Assembly (NCBI GenBank): GCA_048617235.1
Contig: JBMCHT010000002.1
Span: 1 to 61,898 of the forward strand
Length of the DNA stretch: 61,898 nucleotides
Direction of reading: 5' to 3'
Source of the DNA: Patescibacteria group bacterium
Lineage (GTDB): Bacteria > Patescibacteriota > Minisyncoccia > Phycocordibacterales > XYD1-FULL-46-19
Positions 1,212-56,356 of this stretch are shown one piece after another. The translations under genes and the position numbers were made by a program. Position 1 is the stretch's first letter, and every line of letters begins with the position of its first letter. The notes beneath the pieces are model-generated. The model was not told where the DNA came from, searched no databases, and saw nothing but the letters and a program-made list of their open reading frames with translations.

Positions 1212-2264
1212 TTAACCCAGCCCGGCAGGATGGATTGATAAGTGGAGGTGCTCCACCTCTTCGACGTACTCGGAGGAGATGGTAACCACCAACTTCTCCG
1301 AGCCGCCGGGGATGAATATCCGGATGAGGGATCCACCCAGATATTCCACCGCCACCGGCACCACCTCCATTGGCCCCCAGTCCTGATGGGCCCAGACTTC
1401 CACCTGCCCGGGAAATTCCGGCAGGTGAAGGTAAGTAGCCTCCCCCGGCCGGCGCCGGAGAGTAAAGGATCGAGCCGGGATCCAGTCTCCAGCCTCGGTC
1501 TCCTCCCAGTTGCTCAACTCGAGCACCCGGAAGGAAACCGACTGCCGATTAACTAAGTCAATCGGCAAGACATCGCCGGCCAGGCGAACGCTGACCGGAT
1601 TACCCTCCCCCGTCGTCGGGAGCGAGACTGGATCCAACTCCCCGGTGGCCACCATCTGGCCATCACCGGTTAAGATTCGCCAATAGGACTGACGAACCAT
1701 AGGATCTGGCCAGAAAGTGAATCCTTCGGTTTCGGGGTCATAAACAGCCCGAATCCGACCGTCCACCTCCAACACCAGACCGGCAGGATCAACATTCTCC
1801 TCCGGCTGATACGGTAGGAACCGCTCTTCAGCCGTCGGATTAAGGGTAATCCCGATGGGATCACCGGGATCCAAAGTGGCCACCCGAGTGTGTCCGTAAA
1901 GAACACTCCTGCCGGACGAGTCTCGGCCGACCAAATTTATCCTATAACCCTCAACTGGCCCGTCCGCGTTCTCAGGCAACCCCGGCAGGGGGTTGTCAGG
2001 GTCATCAAAGATGATCTCCCCGGCAACCTCGAACCGGGTCACCCAGAACTCCGGGGTCATCCGAAATGATCCACGAACCATCCCGGATTGCCGAGAAAAA
2101 GAAAAGTGACCACGGAAGTGGTCTACCCGATGACGCAAATAAATCTGCGCCAATTCCGTACCTAAGGTTTCCGACTCGGAAACCTCAGGAACCTCTTCCA
2201 CCCCGGCCACCGCCGCCGAAGCGACGACCACAACGATCAAAAACGAAAAAATGAAACCCATCAC
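1212..2264 (-). CDS. secreted hypothetical protein (signal peptide, beta-rich), in a GC-rich island
   Basis: 350-aa ORF with hydrophobic N-terminus MMGFIFSFLIVVVVASAAVAG. Its ATGA overlaps the upstream ORF. Composition differs sharply from the flanks. Confidence 0.7.
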   Translation of the reverse strand: MMGFIFSFLIVVVVASAAVAGVEEVPEVSESETLGTELAQIYLRHRVDHFRGHFSFSRQSGMVRGSFRMTPEFWVTRFEVAGEIIFDDPDNPLPGLPENADGPVEGYRINLVGRDSSGRSVLYGHTRVATLDPGDPIGITLNPTAEERFLPYQPEENVDPAGLVLEVDGRIRAVYDPETEGFTFWPDPMVRQSYWRILTGDGQMVATGELDPVSLPTTGEGNPVSVRLAGDVLPIDLVNRQSVSFRVLELSNWEETEAGDWIPARSFTLRRRPGEATYLHLPEFPGQVEVWAHQDWGPMEVVPVAVEYLGGSLIRIFIPGGSEKLVVTISSEYVEEVEHLHLSIHPAGLG

Positions 2265-2515
2265 TCTTCCTCCACCCGGTGGAACCGGGTCATGTTGAAT
2301 CCGGCCACCACCTCACCAGAGATGGCGACAACTTCTGCCTGAGCCGGCCTCGGTTTAACCGACTCCGACTCTTCCTTTTCTTCGATTGTCTGAACCACCG
2401 GTCCCTCAGGCTGGTTCTCGATCGCCTCCGGCATCTCCGGCCTTGACCAGAGAAACCAGACTGTGGCCATCATTAAGATGACCACAAGCCCCGTCAGGGG
2501 CCACAAATTCTTCAT
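2261..2515 (-). CDS. small membrane-anchored hypothetical protein (GC-rich island)
   Basis: The internal Met (MKNLWPLTGLVVILMMATVWFLW...) is preceded by AAGGAGGAAGGAA. There is one TM segment. The track ORF extends to 2593, but that extension lacks an RBS. Confidence 0.6.
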   Translation of the reverse strand: MKNLWPLTGLVVILMMATVWFLWSRPEMPEAIENQPEGPVVQTIEEKEESESVKPRPAQAEVVAISGEVVAGFNMTRFHRVEEE

Positions 2516-2609
2516 TTCCTTCCTCCTTCTTTTTTTGTCAAAAAAAAATAAAACAGAGGACAACCCCCTGCTCTCCATCGGGAATAATAGCATATTATAC
2601 CCTAGTTTG

Positions 2610-3809
2610 TCAACCCCCGTATCTACCCAAAAAACCCGTCGTAAACTCTTTATAATTGTTGTCTATAATAGCTTGGCGGAGGTTATCTACTAATTGATTA
2701 ATAAAAAACAAATTATGAACAGAAGCCAGAACCGGCCCTAGCATCTCCCCGGCTCTAAACAAATGAGCCAAATAAGCCCGAGTAAAGTTTTGACAAGTAT
2801 AGCAATCGCAATCGGCTTCCAAGGGTTGAAAATCTTTTTTATACTTACTGTTTAAAATATTAATCCTCCCCTCTTTAGTATCTAAAGTACCGTTTCTGGC
2901 CATGCGAGTCGGGGCTACACAATCAAAAGTATCGGCTCCATTGGATACTCCCAAAATTAAATCCTCCGGCCGACCAATTCCCAATAAATGTCGTGATTTA
3001 TCCGGTGGTAAAATAGAATTAACCCAAGTTAAAGCCGTATCCAAATCTTCTTTAACAAAAGAACCGCCAATCCCAAAACCGGCAAAATCCATTCCGGCTA
3101 TTATTCTAGCCGATTCTTGCCGTAAATCCTGAAATCGTCCCCCTTGAACAATCCCGAATAAACCTTGTTTTTTATTTTGACCGGAGGCCTGGTGAGCCCG
3201 AAGAGATCTCTCAGCCCAAGTGTGAGTTCTGTCCATGGCCTTTTTTTGGTAATCATAATCGGCAGTAGGAGTGGTACATTCATCAAAAGCAAATATAATA
3301 TCCGCCCCCAGATTATGTTGAATAGCCATGGAAATCTCCGGAGTTAATCTATGCTCCCGCCCGTCAATATGGGATTTAAAAGTTACTCCTTCATCATCAA
3401 TTTGAGCCGGTTTAGAAACCACTGTCAGTTTTTCTTCTGTAATATTTTGACTACTGGCAAATTTAGATATTCCTCCTTGACCATAAGCCGCTCCTAAAGA
3501 AAAGACCTGGAAACCACCGGAGTCTGTCATTATCGGTCCTGACCAATTCATAAATTGGTGTAAACCACCGGCTGTAGCCACTACTTCATCCCCCGGTTGC
3601 AATAATAAATGATAAGTATTAGCCAAGACTACTTGAGCTCCCAGAGTTTTGACTTGATCCGGTGACAGAGCTTTAACCGTGGCCTTAGTACCCACTGTCA
3701 CAAAAGCCGGGGTTTTTATTGGTCCGTGAGGAGTGTTAATTACTCCGGCTCGACCCAAGCCATTATCTAATTCGGCTTCAATTTTAAAATTAATCGGTTT
3801 AGTATCCAT
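2610..3809 (-). CDS. tgt: queuine tRNA-ribosyltransferase (tRNA-guanine transglycosylase)
   Basis: TDSGGFQV catalytic motif, a CDCYTC...H zinc site, and typical N-terminus and length. Confidence 0.9.
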   Translation of the reverse strand: MDTKPINFKIEAELDNGLGRAGVINTPHGPIKTPAFVTVGTKATVKALSPDQVKTLGAQVVLANTYHLLLQPGDEVVATAGGLHQFMNWSGPIMTDSGGFQVFSLGAAYGQGGISKFASSQNITEEKLTVVSKPAQIDDEGVTFKSHIDGREHRLTPEISMAIQHNLGADIIFAFDECTTPTADYDYQKKAMDRTHTWAERSLRAHQASGQNKKQGLFGIVQGGRFQDLRQESARIIAGMDFAGFGIGGSFVKEDLDTALTWVNSILPPDKSRHLLGIGRPEDLILGVSNGADTFDCVAPTRMARNGTLDTKEGRINILNSKYKKDFQPLEADCDCYTCQNFTRAYLAHLFRAGEMLGPVLASVHNLFFINQLVDNLRQAIIDNNYKEFTTGFLGRYGG

Positions 3810-3875
3810 TTTTTAAATTAAGAAACAGAAACATCCTAACATATATCAGGATAATCACATCTTTAAAAAAGACTT

Positions 3876-5855
3876 TTAATACACCGGATTACAAGCCTCA
3901 CAAATACCAAATTCTTCCAATTTATCCAAATAAGCAATCACTGTTCTAACATATTCAGCATGACTCCAAACCAAAGGTCTGGCTGAAAAAGGTTGGCCGG
4001 TTTGCGGATGAAATTGTTCGGCTAATAAACCATCCGGTTGTGATCTGGTTACCGCCCAAGCTAATAATTTTTTAACTTCATCCAAATCGGATTCTTTTTT
4101 AGCTCTATCCACTAAATATTGAGCCTGCCACATAGTGGTTATTAACCAAGGATTGGTTGGTGAATGGTCACTGTCTCGGTAATAAGCGTCATTTTCATAA
4201 CGAGATAAACCACCAATATCGGCAGACAATTTTTCCACCATATAATCCATTTCCTTTTTAAGCTCCGGATCATCCGCTGCCAATAAACCAAATTGATGTA
4301 AACCGTGAACTGCCGACATATCCGCCACCCAATTGGGTTCCAATTTTCCTTCTTTATTATAAAGCAGGGCTTGAGCATAATGACCGGTTTCCGGATGACG
4401 CAAATGTTCCATTAAACCTTTTTTAACCGCTTCCGCTGTTTGGCGGTAACGATTGGCACTTTTTACTTTACCTAAAATTTCGGCAAAACCGGTAGCAGCC
4501 ATTAAAGCACCATAAACAGCACAAACAGTATAAGTATGAACTCCCCAACGTTCTTCCCATAAATCATAGCTGGGATGTGGCAGACCGGTTTCCCAATCTC
4601 TGTAAGTTACCATGAAATCCGCGGCTGATTTTATTAAGGAATTATAAATTGTTTCTATAAATTCCAAATCTTTAGCTATACCATAATGTTGCCAGAGGGC
4701 GAAAATAACCGAAGCGGTGGAATCTTCTTGAATCGGTAATTGTTGTCGACCGTCCGGAGCCACCCATGGATGCCAAGAACTACCAACAGAACCATCCGGA
4801 GAATATTTATGCAAAAAATAACCATCCTTATCTATCACCTCAGAAGCAAACAAAAAGAATTTGCGAACCACTCCCCAATCACCCACTCGATCTAAAGCTA
4901 AAGCGGCATAAGCCGAATCTCTGGGCCAGACATAAGCATAAGTATCTTTTCCATGTTGTAACATCCCGGAATCTCCGGAGGCAATTATACCTCCACCCAA
5001 ATCCACGTGAGACCGGATAACAAACAAAGAACGATTAAATAAATCTACTGTCTCTTGAGATAAACCATAAAAATTAAAATTCTGACGATTAACCCAAGCA
5101 TGCCAATAATCTTGACCGGTTCTGATTAAATAACCGGGGCCTTTGCTTTTAACATAAGCATTCAATTCGATAACTTCTTCAATACTATGGCCAACGGCCA
5201 ACCAATAATATAAAAATTTATTTTCCCCGGCTTGAAAACTGTCGTGTAAACCAATAACTGAATCTGCTTGACCATGTTCTATCGGATTACCGGAAAGACG
5301 ACCGTCTTGGGCATCTATATGGGTTCCTTCTTTACCTTCGGCTCCAAAAACTCCGGTACTGAATTCTTCAAACCCTCGACCTTCCAATTCGGCATTAACC
5401 AAAAAAGCTCGGCGATTACGGTAATGAATAATTGACTGGCATCGAGGATCATAATAGGCAGTATGGGCTACATGAGATTGATGTGGTTCAAATTGTTGAC
5501 CGAAGAAAATCTTAATATCTCGAGCTGGTCCTTTATTAGAAACAACTATTTGCCGAAAGAAAATATTTTTTTCATTGTAAACCGAATCGGTTATTTTTAA
5601 TTCTAAACCTAAATTAGAATTAATAGCTGTTATTTTACCGGCAAAAACATCGGGATCCATTTTAATATCCAATTGCCAAGAATCGTCATTTAACCAAGAC
5701 ATCCGCCCATCAACCCAAACTCCCAACTGATGTTTATAATGGCCCCCTATCTGATTCTCTAAACCAACATAAGGATAATACAAATCTCGAAGTTGGCCAT
5801 AACGATCCAAGTTAACCAAGATGTGACCATTCCCCAAGGTGACAGATTTAGACAT
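3876..5855 (-). CDS. glycoside hydrolase family 15 (glucoamylase/glucodextranase-like)
   Basis: 659 aa. The N-terminal beta-sandwich plus (alpha/alpha)6 region reads like GH15 (WPRDSAYAALAL, LWEERWG motifs). Confidence 0.8.
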   Translation of the reverse strand: MSKSVTLGNGHILVNLDRYGQLRDLYYPYVGLENQIGGHYKHQLGVWVDGRMSWLNDDSWQLDIKMDPDVFAGKITAINSNLGLELKITDSVYNEKNIFFRQIVVSNKGPARDIKIFFGQQFEPHQSHVAHTAYYDPRCQSIIHYRNRRAFLVNAELEGRGFEEFSTGVFGAEGKEGTHIDAQDGRLSGNPIEHGQADSVIGLHDSFQAGENKFLYYWLAVGHSIEEVIELNAYVKSKGPGYLIRTGQDYWHAWVNRQNFNFYGLSQETVDLFNRSLFVIRSHVDLGGGIIASGDSGMLQHGKDTYAYVWPRDSAYAALALDRVGDWGVVRKFFLFASEVIDKDGYFLHKYSPDGSVGSSWHPWVAPDGRQQLPIQEDSTASVIFALWQHYGIAKDLEFIETIYNSLIKSAADFMVTYRDWETGLPHPSYDLWEERWGVHTYTVCAVYGALMAATGFAEILGKVKSANRYRQTAEAVKKGLMEHLRHPETGHYAQALLYNKEGKLEPNWVADMSAVHGLHQFGLLAADDPELKKEMDYMVEKLSADIGGLSRYENDAYYRDSDHSPTNPWLITTMWQAQYLVDRAKKESDLDEVKKLLAWAVTRSQPDGLLAEQFHPQTGQPFSARPLVWSHAEYVRTVIAYLDKLEEFGICEACNPVY

Positions 5856-5869
5856 ATAAGTTTAAAAAA

Positions 5870-7072
5870 TTATTTTCTATTTGCTAGTCTTAATTGTAAA
5901 TCATTTAGAGCATTAATAAAAGACATAAAGGCATCATAAGGAGAAGCATAAGGATTAAAGTAGGCATGAACATCTCCGTCTTGCCACCATTTAGTGCACA
6001 TATAATAAAAATGATCAGAAGTTTGCAATCGGCGCCAGTCTTCTATTAAATCTGGTCGTTGAGATTTTATAATAACAGACCCTAGGCCATACAATCGGCT
6101 AATGGCCTCCAGTTGCATTTCATTTTCCAACCAAGCCGATAAATCTCTTTCGGTATCCGCCCAAGAAACATAATCGGGGCAGTCTATCTCTCCCACCGCC
6201 GGTAAAGTTTTAACCGCCATAGAAGGAGTTACTATTTCCAAATTTTCAATTTGACTCAGGGCTTGAGGTAAATTACGAATAAAATCAAAAATACCGGTAT
6301 CCGCCCACTGATGTTCGCCAAAAGTCTCATAATCCATAAACAAATTAATAATTTCTCCTCCGGCGGCAAAAGTTTGCCCCACCCATGAAGCAAATTTTTC
6401 CGCCGTTAACGGCCTCTCCGGCCAATGAGGATCTGAAAAACGAAAAGCGATATCATCGGATAATTTATAATTTTTAAGCAAGAGTTTAATTTTATTTTGC
6501 CCTGTCGGATAATAAAGATGATTGGGACTGCGCCAACCTAATAATTTATCCGCACCTTCGGCTAAAACTCCTCGGTAACCGGCCTCAGCCGCCCATTGAG
6601 CCAGCTCATTATGATAGATCAATTCAGTATTGCGTAAAATTTTCGGTTTTTGATCAAATAATTCTTCTATTAAATTCGCTTGTTTATTAACTTGTCGGGT
6701 AAATTCGTCTTTATCATACAAAAAAGATAAGGAATGGTAATAAGTCTCGGCTAAAAATTCCACTTGCCCGGTTTCAGCTAAAAGTCTAAAAAGATGCAAA
6801 GTTTCCGGACTAAAGTCTCTCATTTGCTCTAAAGTAATACCGGAGATAGAAAAACTTATCCGCCAATCGGGATTGTTTTTTAATATTTCCAACCACAATC
6901 GCCCCATTGGTAAATAACATTTGGAGGCTACTTTAGTCATTAAGCGTTCATTATTAAGATTGGTATCGGTTTTATCGTTAAAATATTTCAAACCGGTTCC
7001 CACATCAAAAATCCGCATCGGTCGAATCCGATAAGGCTGATGAACTTGAAAATAAAAACAAAGTTTGGCCAT
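5870..7072 (-). CDS. glycoside hydrolase family 57 (alpha-amylase/alpha-glucan-acting enzyme)
   Basis: The N-terminus FYFQVHQPYR and the ETFGEHQW segment are typical of GH57. Confidence 0.75.
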   Translation of the reverse strand: MAKLCFYFQVHQPYRIRPMRIFDVGTGLKYFNDKTDTNLNNERLMTKVASKCYLPMGRLWLEILKNNPDWRISFSISGITLEQMRDFSPETLHLFRLLAETGQVEFLAETYYHSLSFLYDKDEFTRQVNKQANLIEELFDQKPKILRNTELIYHNELAQWAAEAGYRGVLAEGADKLLGWRSPNHLYYPTGQNKIKLLLKNYKLSDDIAFRFSDPHWPERPLTAEKFASWVGQTFAAGGEIINLFMDYETFGEHQWADTGIFDFIRNLPQALSQIENLEIVTPSMAVKTLPAVGEIDCPDYVSWADTERDLSAWLENEMQLEAISRLYGLGSVIIKSQRPDLIEDWRRLQTSDHFYYMCTKWWQDGDVHAYFNPYASPYDAFMSFINALNDLQLRLANRK

Positions 7073-53559: not shown

Positions 53560-54534
53560 CTACCTATCACTAGAATACTTTTTTATTAATTGATCATAAT
53601 AATCTCCCGATCTAGATTCTAACATCTTCAATCTTTCTTCTTTTTCTTGATCAGAAATATTATATCGATCAAAAAAATCATTCTGATTTCCTTGAAGCCC
53701 TAATCTAAGTTCTCTTAAAGGTAAACAAACACTCCATAACGCTTGATTAAATCCAAAAGCTCCTGATGTATTTTCAGTCATAAAACTTTTAGATACTAAA
53801 ATTAATCCATTATCTATTAAATATAGCTTAGGTTTGTCATCTTTATGGGTTTTACCATAAATTAAGTTCTGGTAATTTGTCACCTCCGGGAATAAACCCT
53901 CTCCCTGTTTTTTTCTTCTTATTTCTTGATCTGCGCTTAAACCAAGTGATAATACTTCATCTGAATTAAGGGTTTCTTCCCACATTTTAAAAGAATTAAA
54001 CATTATATCATCTAACTGTCGTAACATATCAAATATACGCTGGCATTTATCTAAGCCTCTATATTCTAATCCACCCTCCAAATCATTATATTTAAAAGCT
54101 TCAACTAAGGATGCTCTTAAGCTATGCATACTGCTATGAATATTAGCATTACTGTTTTGTCTAATTCCCGCCACAGTCATCTCTTCTTTTATTAACTCAT
54201 CTATATTCAAACCTACAACCCGATCTTGAACAAGATATAACTGCGGTTCAGCTGAAGTTTCACTTTGTCCGATTACAAAACGACTATTGGGCACCGCTTC
54301 TCCTAAATATTGTTTTAACAATTTATATCCTTTCAAATAACGCTCTTTAATATAGTCTATCAGGGGCAAATCTTTTACTTCTTCATCTAGCTTAGAATTA
54401 GGCTCTTTTTTGAGAGTTTTAATTACAAATCTATCATCATCCTTAAATCGAGATACATCAAATTCAAAACTATCGGTTTCTTTCATTTCCATTTCACCTC
54501 TAAAAGGTGTTAGATCTTCCGGTTTTTTATTCAT
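53560..54534 (-). CDS. hypothetical protein (324 aa); faint protein-kinase-like pattern
   Basis: VIKTLKK...LYLVQDRVVG...NLIY...LYLIDNG order resembles a beta3-Lys / hinge / catalytic-Asn / DxG layout. Not conclusive. Confidence 0.45.
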   Translation of the reverse strand: MNKKPEDLTPFRGEMEMKETDSFEFDVSRFKDDDRFVIKTLKKEPNSKLDEEVKDLPLIDYIKERYLKGYKLLKQYLGEAVPNSRFVIGQSETSAEPQLYLVQDRVVGLNIDELIKEEMTVAGIRQNSNANIHSSMHSLRASLVEAFKYNDLEGGLEYRGLDKCQRIFDMLRQLDDIMFNSFKMWEETLNSDEVLSLGLSADQEIRRKKQGEGLFPEVTNYQNLIYGKTHKDDKPKLYLIDNGLILVSKSFMTENTSGAFGFNQALWSVCLPLRELRLGLQGNQNDFFDRYNISDQEKEERLKMLESRSGDYYDQLIKKYSSDR

Positions 54535-54620
54535 ATTTTTATTTTACACCAACATCCAAATTTAAAGAAACAACCTAAGAAAATATCTCTTCAATCTTCT
54601 CTATTGTTTACTTTAATTGA
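54524..54620. repeat. direct repeat, copy A (decayed copy of the NUDIX 3' end plus intergenic spacer)
   Basis: Near-identical to 55851..55946. The core 54544..54620 versus 55871..55946 differs at only a handful of positions. Confidence 0.85.
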
Positions 54621-54631
54621 GATAAAAATAG

Positions 54632-54973
54632 CTACATCATAAATATATCACAAATATCCTGTATTCTTTTTTTGTTTTCCCTTTCTTTGTTGCCCTTATA
54701 ATACACTTCAATAAACACAACCTCTACCGTATCTCCATCATAAAAATAAATAAGCCTAAGTTCGGATCCTCTCAGAGTCCGACACATCATTCTCATTTTC
54801 AAAATATACTTATTATCTTTTTCCCGTAATATATTCCAATGTTTACTCCCATCCCCGGTCGGTTCTACTTGAATTGCCTTTTTAGCCACCTCGAAATCTT
54901 CTTGAAGTGTTTTGTATTTCTTCAACAACCTCTTAAAATCTTTCTGAAACTTATCACCTTCCACAATCTTCAT
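54632..54973 (-). CDS. RelE/ParE-superfamily-like toxin
   Basis: 113 aa and basic. C-terminal strands read LRLIYFYDGDTVEVVFIEVYYK. Lies directly downstream of the antitoxin. Confidence 0.55.
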   Translation of the reverse strand: MKIVEGDKFQKDFKRLLKKYKTLQEDFEVAKKAIQVEPTGDGSKHWNILREKDNKYILKMRMMCRTLRGSELRLIYFYDGDTVEVVFIEVYYKGNKERENKKRIQDICDIFMM

Positions 54974-54984
54974 ACAGCTTTATT

Positions 54985-55710
54985 CTAAAGTTTACTGTAA
55001 TCACGCACCGAAAATTCATTCGGTCGATAAAAAGCAAGTTCATAATCTATATTTTCACCATATTCAGTCGCCTTCCAAGGCATATCACGATGAGTCATTT
55101 CCGATAGCTGTGTTGCGGTTCGATCTGAATACCTATCAAGTACATCATTAATCATCTCAAGTTCCTCACCTGATAATTCAGCAAAATTTGCCTCAGACCG
55201 AGGAAGAAACTTTTTTTGCTCTCGAGTAAAAAATTTGGACTTAACTTCTACAACATCACCAGATGCCCTCATCTCATCAACCACCTTTTTAAACTGACGC
55301 GGAGTCGGACCGTGGTCATTTTTAATATAAGTGAGACCCATTAACTGCTTCTCATACTTTTCGTAATAATCAAAATCAATGAAGTACAGGAGTTTATACA
55401 ACACCGTCATACCTACATTCGGTTTAGCTCCAACTTTCTCCAATACATACAGTAAAACTTGTTTGAACTTCTTAACATTTTCCTGTGGAATACTGACACG
55501 CATATCACTCTGCTTCTTCTTATCAAGTTCAAAAGATCTAGCTATTTTATCAAACCTTTCCTTTTCCTTGGTAGTAAGTTTCCGTTCGCCTTTTTCAACC
55601 TTTATCAAGGTAGGGCGAGAAATTCCTAATACACCAGCAAGCTCTACTTGAGAAAGACCAAGCTTTTTACGCTTTTTTTGTATTTGTGTAGTCATACTTA
55701 CAATATACAC
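54985..55710 (-). CDS. antitoxin: XRE-type HTH fused to a Panacea (DUF4065/SocA-like) domain
   Basis: KKLGLSQVELAGVLGISRPTLIKVEKGER is the HTH. LYKLLYFIDFDYYEKY...Y.KNDHGP is the DUF4065 pattern. The start may be Met at 55695. Confidence 0.7.
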   Translation of the reverse strand: MYIVSMTTQIQKKRKKLGLSQVELAGVLGISRPTLIKVEKGERKLTTKEKERFDKIARSFELDKKKQSDMRVSIPQENVKKFKQVLLYVLEKVGAKPNVGMTVLYKLLYFIDFDYYEKYEKQLMGLTYIKNDHGPTPRQFKKVVDEMRASGDVVEVKSKFFTREQKKFLPRSEANFAELSGEELEMINDVLDRYSDRTATQLSEMTHRDMPWKATEYGENIDYELAFYRPNEFSVRDYSKL

Positions 55711-55712
55711 CC

Positions 55713-55751
55713 ATATGTTATATTTTACAAATAAATATGTTAATATTTACA
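55713..55751. promoter_or_regulatory. two 17-nt direct repeats upstream of the antitoxin gene (candidate operator)
   Basis: ATATGTTATATTTTACA at 55713..55729 and ATATGTTAATATTTACA at 55735..55751. Confidence 0.45.
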
Positions 55752-55850
55752 TCTTCTTTATCACTCCTTTTTTACCCCAATTCACTTAAACAACCGCTCT
55801 TACAACTACCGCCCTTTCTCCATTTGATATCAAATACTTCACCAATAGTT

Positions 55851-55946
55851 TGTTTCTTTATATTTTTATCTTACACCAACATCCAGGTTTAAAAAATAAC
55901 CTAAGAAAACATCTCTTCAATCTTCTCTATTGTTTGCTCTAATTGA
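55851..55946. repeat. direct repeat, copy B (covers the functional 3' end of the NUDIX gene)
   Basis: See copy A. Confidence 0.85.
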
Positions 55947-56356
55947 TTATCAAAAAGTAAGTAATGTTTTAATTCGGAAACAGGCACCCACTTGTAAGTT
56001 CGCACTTCACCGTCTTTTTGATAGATTTCATGATCGGAACCAACAAAACGAAAACCAAAAAAATATCTCTCTGAACCTTCATATGCTACTCCATCACACT
56101 CCATTGTTATGGCTTTAAATTTAAATAGTACCGGTACCTGACTTCTGCCCACCAACTCAAGAGAGTCCTCTTTTAGACCAAGTTCTTCGTCCAACTCTCG
56201 GTAAATCGCCCTCTCTAATTCTTCTCCGGGTTCAACTCCACCTCCGGGAACTGCAAAATATTTAAGGTTAAAAGACTCTAAATTAACCAAAAGAAACTCT
56301 TGATTATCATTCATTACCAGACCGGAAACTCCTTTTCGATACATATTAATACTCAA
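55901..56356 (-). CDS. NUDIX hydrolase
   Basis: Nudix box GGGVEPGEELERAIYRELDEELGL. Confidence 0.85.
   Translation of the reverse strand: MSINMYRKGVSGLVMNDNQEFLLVNLESFNLKYFAVPGGGVEPGEELERAIYRELDEELGLKEDSLELVGRSQVPVLFKFKAITMECDGVAYEGSERYFFGFRFVGSDHEIYQKDGEVRTYKWVPVSELKHYLLFDNQLEQTIEKIEEMFS

Follow-up and report, generated by a model that had tools for sequence, protein, structure and literature searches.

A toxin-antitoxin cassette probably inserted with long target duplication and without a recombinase gene in a Patescibacteria genome

The recombinase-free movement of chromosomal toxin-antitoxin (TA) pairs is an old open question, to which a locus that seems to keep both joints of a single event could be particularly relevant. 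Such a locus is found in a Patescibacteria group bacterium (GenBank assembly GCA_048617235.1, contig JBMCHT010000002.1), in the stretch of 61,898 nucleotides that was analysed as a whole and is here called the window. A TA cassette lies between a NUDIX hydrolase gene and a gene for a 324-aa protein, and a copy of the junction between these two genes is found on either side of it. How did the cassette come to be bracketed in this way, and which functions, its own or those of the host, may have brought it there? The features of the locus are as follows.

53560..54534, minus strand: 324-aa orphan gene, the downstream neighbour at the putative pre-insertion junction, with no family match.
54523..54620, minus strand: repeat copy A, with the decayed NUDIX 3' end, the spacer, which now precedes the 324-aa gene as its 5' region, and the true start of this gene (ATG and first codons).
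54621..54631, minus strand: gap of 11 nt from the toxin stop to copy A, within which the homology with the cassette at locus L009 ends (at 54624).
54632..54973, minus strand: toxin, 113 aa, with a RelE/ParE-superfamily fold as predicted by AlphaFold2 and Foldseek.
54985..55695, minus strand: antitoxin, 236 aa, with an N-terminal Xre-type HTH (PF01381, E 1e-9) and a Panacea domain (DUF4065/SocA).
55696..55752, minus strand: promoter/operator, TTGTAA-17-TATATT with two direct-repeat half-sites of ~15 nt.
55753..55849, minus strand: filler of 97 nt, within the inserted DNA and outside the conserved cassette, unique, GC 37%.
55850..55946, minus strand: repeat copy B, with the functional NUDIX end (last 15 codons and stop), the 40-nt spacer, and 12-14 nt of a dead 324-aa gene start (ATA for ATG).
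55901..56344, minus strand: NUDIX hydrolase, 147 aa from the ATG at 56344 (the ORF could reach TTG 56356), PF00293, E 1e-19.

A repeat of about 90 bp had been claimed at 54524..54620 and 55851..55946, and formal alignment with MAFFT and blastn confirms it, at 54523-54620 and 55850-55946, as a direct repeat of 98 nt with 88.8% identity, in which the copies show 11 differences in all, including one 1-nt indel. Its right edge is sharp (54620/55946), and the left one is lost gradually across ~3 nt (54521-54523/55848-55850). The sequence is not of low complexity and, when the entire genome of 642,865 bp is searched against itself, the repeat has an E-value of 5.4e-27 and is present in exactly two copies, so that it is not a dispersed repeat; the E-value rules out that the similarity is due to low-complexity, AT-rich DNA, a doubt that the original prediction itself had raised.

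The repeated sequence appears to be that of the host. Of the NUDIX gene it comprises the last 46 nt and of the 324-aa gene the first 12-14 nt, with the 40-nt spacer between them; each copy retains one functional half of this junction. The translation of copy B, QLEQTIEKIEEMFS*, is the true C-terminal end of the NUDIX protein, and that of copy A, QLK*TIEKIEEIFS*, is a decayed version of the same end; the start of the 324-aa ORF reads CAT on the plus strand at 54532-54534 and TAT at 55858-55860 in copy B. The true gene end in copy B, the early stop after QLK in copy A and the altered start codon had all been described in this way from the letters alone. Moreover, copy A matches the 3' end of the NUDIX gene in the closest orthologue (L010) at 79%, which points to a true relic of this gene end. 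The NUDIX gene is a conserved, Paceibacteria-type gene with 363 homologues (best identity 76%), which in the databases are mostly 147-156 aa long. The 324-aa protein is a lineage-specific orphan: it has no family match in Pfam, NCBIfam or PADLOC and no match in an exact-protein look-up, a homologue is absent from 60 relatives, and among 5.8 billion proteins one distant homologue (35%) was found, on a 1.9-kb contig.

The DNA between the copies (54621-55849, 1229 nt) consists of the filler, the promoter/operator, the antitoxin and the toxin. It had been expected to hold a TA pair with its control region and nothing else; both genes and the control region were found, together with the filler, which is extra. 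The assignment of the genes to an HTH-Panacea antitoxin and a RelE/ParE-like toxin agrees with Pfam for the former and with the predicted fold for the latter. In particular, the Panacea domain gives a full-length match to PF13274 (E 5.8e-21), and the antitoxin start at ATG 55695 is set by the alignment with L009, the ORF being open from GTG 55710. The toxin has no sequence-family match in Pfam, NCBIfam or PADLOC; its AlphaFold2 model (pLDDT 87) has the RelE-type order of elements beta-alpha-alpha-beta-beta-beta(-beta-alpha), and the best Foldseek matches are YoeB, RelE and HigB2, with probability up to 1.0. The top 22 matches are YoeB, RelE, HigB, YafQ or ParE toxins or small RelE-like proteins of H. 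pylori, with TM to target of 0.5-0.73, yet with E-values of only 2e-3 and weaker. Residues K59, R65, R73, Y76, E89, K93 and K96 are conserved. On the basis of the domain matches and the model, the cargo is predicted to be a type II TA pair, with an HTH-Panacea antitoxin and a toxin of the RelE/YoeB/HigB type.

The limits of the cassette can be read from its homologues. The -10 box ends 6 nt before the antitoxin ATG, a promoter scan matches at 55730..55702, and the promoter/operator is conserved across 5 aligned cassette loci. With L009, the most similar cassette elsewhere (77% DNA identity), homology extends from 55750, in the promoter, to a point in the 11-nt gap, 3 nt from copy A; the right-hand joint is therefore placed within 54621..54631. 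Nothing resembling the NUDIX gene or its upstream DNA is present between the copies, and the insert has the appearance of a discrete mobile unit. Its GC content is 35.2% versus 35.5% for the genome, so that composition gives no hint of a foreign origin. The frame in the filler is an open ORF tail ending in TAA; the filler matches nothing in the genome or among ~190 fetched loci, either as DNA or in translation, does not align to the DNA upstream of the L009 cassette, and is possibly a relic of DNA that flanked the cassette in its donor.

A TA module that moves without a recombinase gene had been proposed, and the insert indeed holds no recombinase, no terminal inverted repeat and no hairpin site, and the same type of scar is seen at related cassettes. 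No transposase or integrase reaches the family cut-off of Pfam, NCBIfam or PADLOC in the insert or its neighbourhood, the sole transposase-type row being an IS3 match far below it (E 0.029, 13.6 bits against a cut-off of 160 bits). The best score for terminal inverted repeats is insignificant in all six bracketed inserts, no joint motif is shared across them, and microhomology at the joints does not exceed what AT-rich DNA would give. The fold of copy B is no better than that of shuffled sequences (z -0.35) and that of copy A is modest (z -2.7), and an attC site or a terminator at the repeat was rejected on these grounds. Relatives of the toxin were not found on IMG/VR viral contigs, by peptide-pattern search, or on PLSDB plasmids. 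The genome encodes ComEC, DprA and RecA and has no Ku gene, which rejects end joining by Ku. A reverse-transcript origin was considered because of the fixed 3' end, the variable 5' end and the variable duplication, and is disfavoured by the presence of the promoter within the insert and by the lack of an RVT_1 gene in the genome.

The cassette family provides a wider view of this arrangement. About 970 matches were obtained (441 in species genomes and more than 530 in metagenomes), and in 156 of the 160 loci fetched, from many phyla, the toxin gene immediately follows an HTH-Panacea gene, the remaining four being short contigs in which the antitoxin is not detectable. Among the 103 usable, non-identical loci of a register test, eight direct-repeat pairs are spaced so as to possibly bracket the cassette, and three of the eight are in strict register with the toxin stop (chance expectation 0.04, P = 9e-6). 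Five other loci of the family carry a bracket.

L036: repeat of 188 nt, 80% identity, 3' end of a malic-enzyme gene; strict register.
L048: repeat of 82 nt, 100% identity; strict register.
L101: repeat of 77 nt, 97% identity, first 77 nt of hsdR; strict register.
L046: repeat of 34 nt, starting 32 nt from the toxin stop; additional near-register case.
L162: repeat of 45 nt; additional near-register case, with a flank too short for the register test.

The downstream copy starts at -5 to +9 nt from the toxin stop in L036, L048, L101 and L162, and the L048 repeat has two copies only in its genome. The flanking repeats of the six related insertions are unrelated host sequences (34-188 nt) with no common core, and the identity of the brackets across the family ranges from 100% to 80%. 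The cassette family supplies several independent insertion events. In the Patescibacteria genome studied here, a bracket of 171 nt surrounds a lone RhuM-family gene; the duplicated sequence consists of a spacer and of the 5' end (38 codons) of a conserved 343-aa gene. Of the 33 relatives with this gene, 28 gave one match at E<=0.001 and 5 gave two, and G000 alone has a second match that looks like a relic. The other direct repeats in the genome are tRNA paralogues or tandem arrays at contig ends.

As a separate observation, the inserts are apparently polar: on the side of the last stop codon they always end at most about 30 nt from it, but 0-370 nt of additional DNA precede the promoter.

An empty site, with the NUDIX gene directly followed by the 324-aa gene, was not found in the collections searched, in which the closest NUDIX relative (76% protein identity) has different neighbours; for L048 and L101, every other assembly has a filled site or breaks at the repeat. 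Of the three checks suggested with the original prediction, the formal alignment and the search for the same cassette at other loci were positive and the search for the empty site was not. The target origin of the repeat is read from the match of copy A to the L010 gene end and from the real gene end in copy B, no single-copy genome having been found.

From these observations, it is probable that 1229 bp of foreign DNA were inserted at the junction of the NUDIX and 324-aa genes with a long duplication (~98 bp) of the target. The inserted DNA would have consisted of the filler and of a self-contained TA operon with its own promoter/operator, and the insertion would have copied the three parts of the junction (46 nt, 40 nt and 12-14 nt) without the use of any insert-encoded enzyme. 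With a copy of the target on either side, the true end of the NUDIX gene, in copy B, and the start and upstream region of the 324-aa gene, in copy A, would have been kept, and the redundant halves would then have decayed, by a nonsense codon in copy A and by the change of ATG to ATA in copy B. The DNA may have arrived naked through the competence machinery and may have been joined by host replication or repair, either through a staggered break that was filled in or through a template switch, in which the target would have been re-entered ~98 nt behind the exit point. The TA pair could have guarded itself, through post-segregational killing, against loss by recombination between the repeats, and this self-protection would have let the bracket last long enough for a divergence of 11%. 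The same divergence counts against this explanation, as the two copies could stem from different strains. The repeat, the NUDIX relic, the limits of the cassette and the recurring bracket all support the earlier proposal of an insertion that duplicated its target and preserved the former junction.

Among the alternatives, a two-step history is unlikely, although it survives best: a tandem duplication of the junction, or unequal recombination between strain variants, would have come first, and the cassette would later have landed in, or replaced most of, the space between the copies. Tandem NUDIX genes do occur in one relative (L011), and the cassette of L004/L012 sits between diverged tandem paralogues of ~750-790 nt, so that a cassette between older duplicates is possible; such a history, however, does not predict the register with the toxin stop seen at the other loci (-5 to +9 nt, or 32 nt in L046), and it has to accommodate cassette homology that stops 3 nt from copy A and the lack of NUDIX-like or NUDIX-upstream DNA between the copies.

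It is still less probable that the copies are the attL and attR of an integrase-less, CIME-like element, moved by a recombinase in trans, which targeted the NUDIX 3' end and brought its own copy of the gene end. The related brackets, from a malic-enzyme 3' end to an hsdR 5' end and intergenic DNA, are unrelated host sequences, no common core is found at the ends of the related cassettes, the repeat also spans the first codons of the next gene, and no hairpin or attC-like structure is present. In favour of this reading, elements that target gene 3' ends bring a replacement end and usually have imperfect direct repeats that are tens of bp long, and one tyrosine recombinase is encoded in the genome; the latter is a single open frame of 310 aa.

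That the cassette is older, and that a block of NUDIX relic and 324-aa gene came later from a relative with these two genes as neighbours, is quite improbable: the lineage-specific nature of the 324-aa gene would suit it, but copy B, beside the real NUDIX gene, also has the spacer and the dead first 12 nt of the 324-aa gene, from which it follows that the junction predates the cassette at this site. Chance similarity or an assembly artefact has a negligible probability and was rejected on the repeat statistics and the L010 match, since, even if the copies are AT-rich (GC 21-27%) and metagenome assemblers can produce repeats of k-mer length, the E-value of 5.4e-27 holds genome-wide, 11 differences with an indel are not expected from an artefact, and copy A matches an orthologous gene end in another genome.

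If the preferred reading, insertion with target duplication, is extended beyond this locus, small self-stabilising or defence cassettes could regularly leave a scar of long target duplication in compact, competence-equipped genomes, by a process that relies solely on host replication or repair and is cargo-independent and polar; this generalisation is tentative. Its cargo independence may be seen in the TA pairs and the RhuM gene found here and the restriction-modification units of the literature. The footprint is like that of restriction-modification units, but the absence of a predicted DNA-cutting domain in the cargo argues against breaks made by the cargo itself driving the process and would point to a host pathway, perhaps tied to natural transformation. 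The polarity, if true, would speak for a defined intermediate (a single strand whose 3' end is fixed, for instance) and not for random breakage. In annotation, such insertions would account for short dead gene ends and gene starts beside accessory genes, and the bracket could be a signature for delimiting and dating recent insertions in uncultured, reduced genomes.

The locus shares some traits with several known systems. Classical transposons also leave a direct target duplication at both ends of the insert, typically of <10 bp (19-26 bp for IS1630; PMC2853133), but they have duplications of fixed length, terminal inverted repeats and a transposase, whereas here the duplications vary from 34 to 188 bp and neither of the latter is present. 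Integron TA cassettes are likewise compact, promoter-bearing units with a boundary just past the second gene; here, however, there is no attC-like imperfect palindrome and no cassette array, and the repeat is host coding sequence. In CIMEs and gene-3'-end islands, a gene 3' end is part of the direct repeats and the element lacks an internal recombinase, as in our case, in which, unlike in those elements, there is no conserved att core, the repeat enters the next gene, and its length and sequence vary by site. In PanAT systems, Panacea antitoxins are partnered with MqsR-like, Fic/Doc, toxSAS, PemK and ParE toxins (Kurata et al. 2022, PMC8832971). The present pair resembles them in the Panacea (DUF4065) antitoxin with N-terminal HTH, in the antitoxin-first two-gene operon and in the wide, non-taxonomic distribution across phyla, and differs in that its toxin is recognised by predicted fold alone (RelE/ParE-like), with no sequence-family match.

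The closest likeness is with restriction-modification gene units, whose insertion with long target duplication was reportedly described by Nobusato et al. in 2000 (Gene 259:99). Units of this kind without mobility genes, with variable target duplications of 46-423 bp, were described by Furuta, Abe and Kobayashi in 2010 (PMC2853133), mostly in naturally competent species (PMC2853133, PMC3874152). Their criteria were repeats >30 bp, a single-copy target, no mobility gene, an insert <20 kb and a repeat that is not dispersed (Furuta et al. 2010, PMC2853133); here, the repeat is longer than 30 bp and not dispersed, and the insert is shorter than 20 kb and has no mobility gene. The published cases differ in that they were defined by genome comparison, whereas no empty-site genome was found here in the collections searched, and in their hosts, the present one being a Patescibacteria genome of 0.64 Mb. 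The cargo differs as well, being a type II TA pair and not a DNA-cutting system, so that the idea of the same authors, in which double-strand breaks made by the restriction enzyme drive the event, cannot apply. In both, a small addiction-type unit without a mobility gene is flanked by unique repeats (98 bp here), target-derived in the published cases and apparently so in the present one, which in many cases run into the end of an adjacent gene, in a host with competence genes. The locus is probably an insertion with long target duplication of the type known for restriction-modification genes, here with a TA cargo, and the recurrence of the scar around the relatives of the cassette, together with the 171-nt bracket around the RhuM gene, is new here.

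The region's genes are all on the minus strand and are transcribed in the order NUDIX, HTH-Panacea, 113-aa gene and 324-aa gene, and a direct repeat of 98 nt brackets the two middle ones:

56344..55901, minus strand, NUDIX gene
55850-55946, copy B of the direct repeat
55695..54985, minus strand, HTH-Panacea gene
54973..54632, minus strand, 113-aa gene
54523-54620, copy A of the direct repeat
54534..53560, minus strand, 324-aa gene

The repeat noted in the original prediction is real: the copies align at 88.8% identity with one indel of 1 nt (E 5.4e-27 in a self-comparison of the whole genome, 642,865 bp in four contigs), and no third copy occurs in that genome. Translation confirmed that the true NUDIX protein terminates in copy B (QLEQTIEKIEEMFS*) and that the same frame in copy A acquires a stop (QLK*TIEKIEEIFS*); likewise, the ATG of the 324-aa gene lies in copy A and has become ATA in copy B. 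Between the copies are 1229 nt, expected to hold only toxin-antitoxin (TA) genes and their control region; this is right for the genes, but 97 nt (55753-55849) lie outside both the repeat and the conserved cassette. As anticipated, the insert contains no recombinase gene; terminal inverted repeats are also missing from it, its GC content is that of the genome, and no significant secondary structure is predicted for copy B. At its start (1-1014) the window carries tandem repeats, each unit about 60 nt long, that match the ends of the genome's other contigs, C1, C3 and C4, at 77-92% and are probably the reason for the assembly break there.

The NUDIX gene is conserved in the group, with 363 homologues, the closest of which (76% identical, on contig L010 from another genome) aligns with it through the stop codon and 9 nt further. 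Copy A separately aligns with the same 3' end at 79% and is therefore a relic of the NUDIX end, which rules out a chance AT-rich match as its origin. The 11% divergence between the copies could also reflect a strain-hybrid origin, from which it is not distinguishable. The coding part differs at three places, a nonsense codon and one replacement in copy A and, with L010 as reference, a conservative I>M change in copy B, a distribution that fits a relaxation of selection on whichever half of each copy is redundant. The 324-aa gene (53560-54534) has a single homologue, 35% identical, among 5.8 billion proteins, and 60 relatives yielded none; since it is nearly an orphan, the junction was already lineage-specific before the insertion. 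An empty site, with NUDIX followed directly by the 324-aa gene, was not found in the collections searched.

The insert is a discrete TA cassette whose 113-aa product is, on the basis of its modelled structure, a predicted RelE-type toxin. In the antitoxin an HTH_3 domain (E 1e-9) is combined with a SocA_Panacea domain (E 6e-21). Pfam, NCBIfam and PADLOC gave no family match for the 113-aa protein; a structural model derived from 16 homologues (pLDDT 87) shows the order beta-alpha-alpha-beta-beta-beta-beta-alpha of RelE-type toxins, and its best PDB matches are YoeB, RelE, HigB2, YafQ and ParE, with probabilities of up to 1.0 and E from 2e-3. The target of this toxin would be either mRNA or gyrase. 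The cassette, single-copy in this genome, had been proposed for a search at other loci, and 160 were fetched through the toxin, in Patescibacteria, Brocadia, Gammaproteobacteria, Elusimicrobiota, Thermodesulfobacteriota and an archaeon, with different neighbours each time; the HTH-Panacea gene immediately precedes the toxin in 156 of them, the remaining four being short contigs. No toxin relatives were found on viral contigs or plasmids. With L009, the nearest cassette by sequence (78% toxin identity), DNA homology runs from 55750 to 54624, ending 3 nt from copy A, and the upstream homology common to all compared cassettes is only a promoter/operator of about 57 nt, with TTGTAA-17-TATATT placed 6 nt upstream of the antitoxin ATG. 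This spacing of the -10 box (window 55696-55730) recurs in the four other aligned cassettes, which would point to a transcript with little or no leader.

Direct repeats recur around related cassettes. After removal of identical cassettes and of loci with short flanks, 103 loci were left, among which eight repeat pairs had an inner spacing able to bracket the cassette; three of them begin -5 to +8 nt from the toxin stop, against a chance expectation of 0.04 (P = 9e-6). The repeats, mutually unrelated and in each case local host sequence, are:

L036, 188 nt at 80%, the 3' end of a malic-enzyme gene in convergent orientation
L048, 82 nt at 100%, only two copies in its genome
L101, 77 nt at 97%, the start (nt 1-77) of a type I hsdR gene
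L046, 34 nt at 85%, 32 nt from the toxin stop, further candidate
L162, 45 nt at 84%, starting 9 nt from the toxin stop, further candidate whose short flank kept it out of the test

A second assembly of the L048 species breaks exactly at the repeat, and in L101 the hsdR ATG overlaps the toxin TGA (ATGA). In L101/L184 (JGI Ga0222634_1000083; L101 2769-4420) the cassette sits within a type I restriction-modification (RM) operon ordered hsdM, hsdS, Schlafen/AlbA_2 ATPase and hsdR, 77 nt into the last gene, with about 370 nt of extra DNA, including a 77-aa antisense ORF, upstream of the promoter. In L036 a second HTH-Panacea gene (1980-2852, minus strand, 290 aa) adjoins the bracketed cassette in the opposite orientation. 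Less probably, the duplication came first and the cassette later, between older copies. L004/L012 (GCA_040879645.1, Paceibacterota; 3435-6225), a looser arrangement counted solely in favour of this order, has the cassette between two diverged tandem paralogues, 210-aa membrane proteins, the upstream one split into ORFs of 88 and 113 aa; their ends match over 65 nt at 94% and over 80 nt at 84%, the latter with a terminator-like hairpin, and their middles, far less conserved, at about 55-60%. Overall, the evidence supports the original reading of a TA cassette inserted with target duplication.

The same genome holds a second such scar, on contig C4, where a 171-nt direct repeat (94958-95128 and 95963-96118, including a 15-nt indel) brackets a RhuM-family gene that stands alone, outside the window. 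In the coordinates of locus L181, whose 1459-2619 correspond to C4 94958-96118, the features are:

1728-2432, plus strand, RhuM-family gene, 234 aa
1567..536, 343-aa gene, real copy
2557..2441, 343-aa gene, dead start

The repeat consists of a spacer and the first 38 codons of the conserved 343-aa gene, which was detected in 33 of the 40 searched relatives, usually as one match each; among these, a truncated start beside the full gene occurs only in the window's genome. In the relative L196 the genes flanking RhuM adjoin each other without it. Since RhuM is bracketed likewise, the scar is independent of the TA cargo.

The genome encodes ComEC, DprA, RecA and one tyrosine recombinase of 310 aa; Ku and reverse transcriptase were not found in it. 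Naked DNA might be taken up, and its joining might involve fill-in of a staggered break or, alternatively, a template switch during replication that re-enters the target behind its exit point; the cassette would then be retained, as recombination between the copies would delete it and free the toxin. In all bracketed cases the downstream copy begins no more than about 30 nt from the final stop codon, and 0-370 nt of event-specific DNA (97 nt in the window) separate the upstream copy from the conserved promoter. This polarity, with a fixed downstream and a variable upstream joint, is predicted by none of the models considered.

The locus shows the pattern known as insertion with long target duplication. 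Genome comparison revealed it for RM units of Helicobacter pylori and subsequently in further species, most of them naturally competent; the duplications span 46-423 bp and the units lack mobility genes (PMC2853133; PMC3874152). The same authors proposed that double-strand breakage, a property common to restriction systems, might drive the insertion, and the reviews consulted ascribe the pattern to RM systems only, not to classical TA pairs (including PMC3874152). Once classified, the locus is ordinary, and the recurrence statistics, the independence of cargo and the polarity make the question of mechanism more testable. Unlike the published RM units, the cargo here is a TA pair with no predicted DNA-cutting domain, which favours a mechanism provided by the host. 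This kind of insertion was already known, though little studied; the TA cargo and the Patescibacteria host are new.
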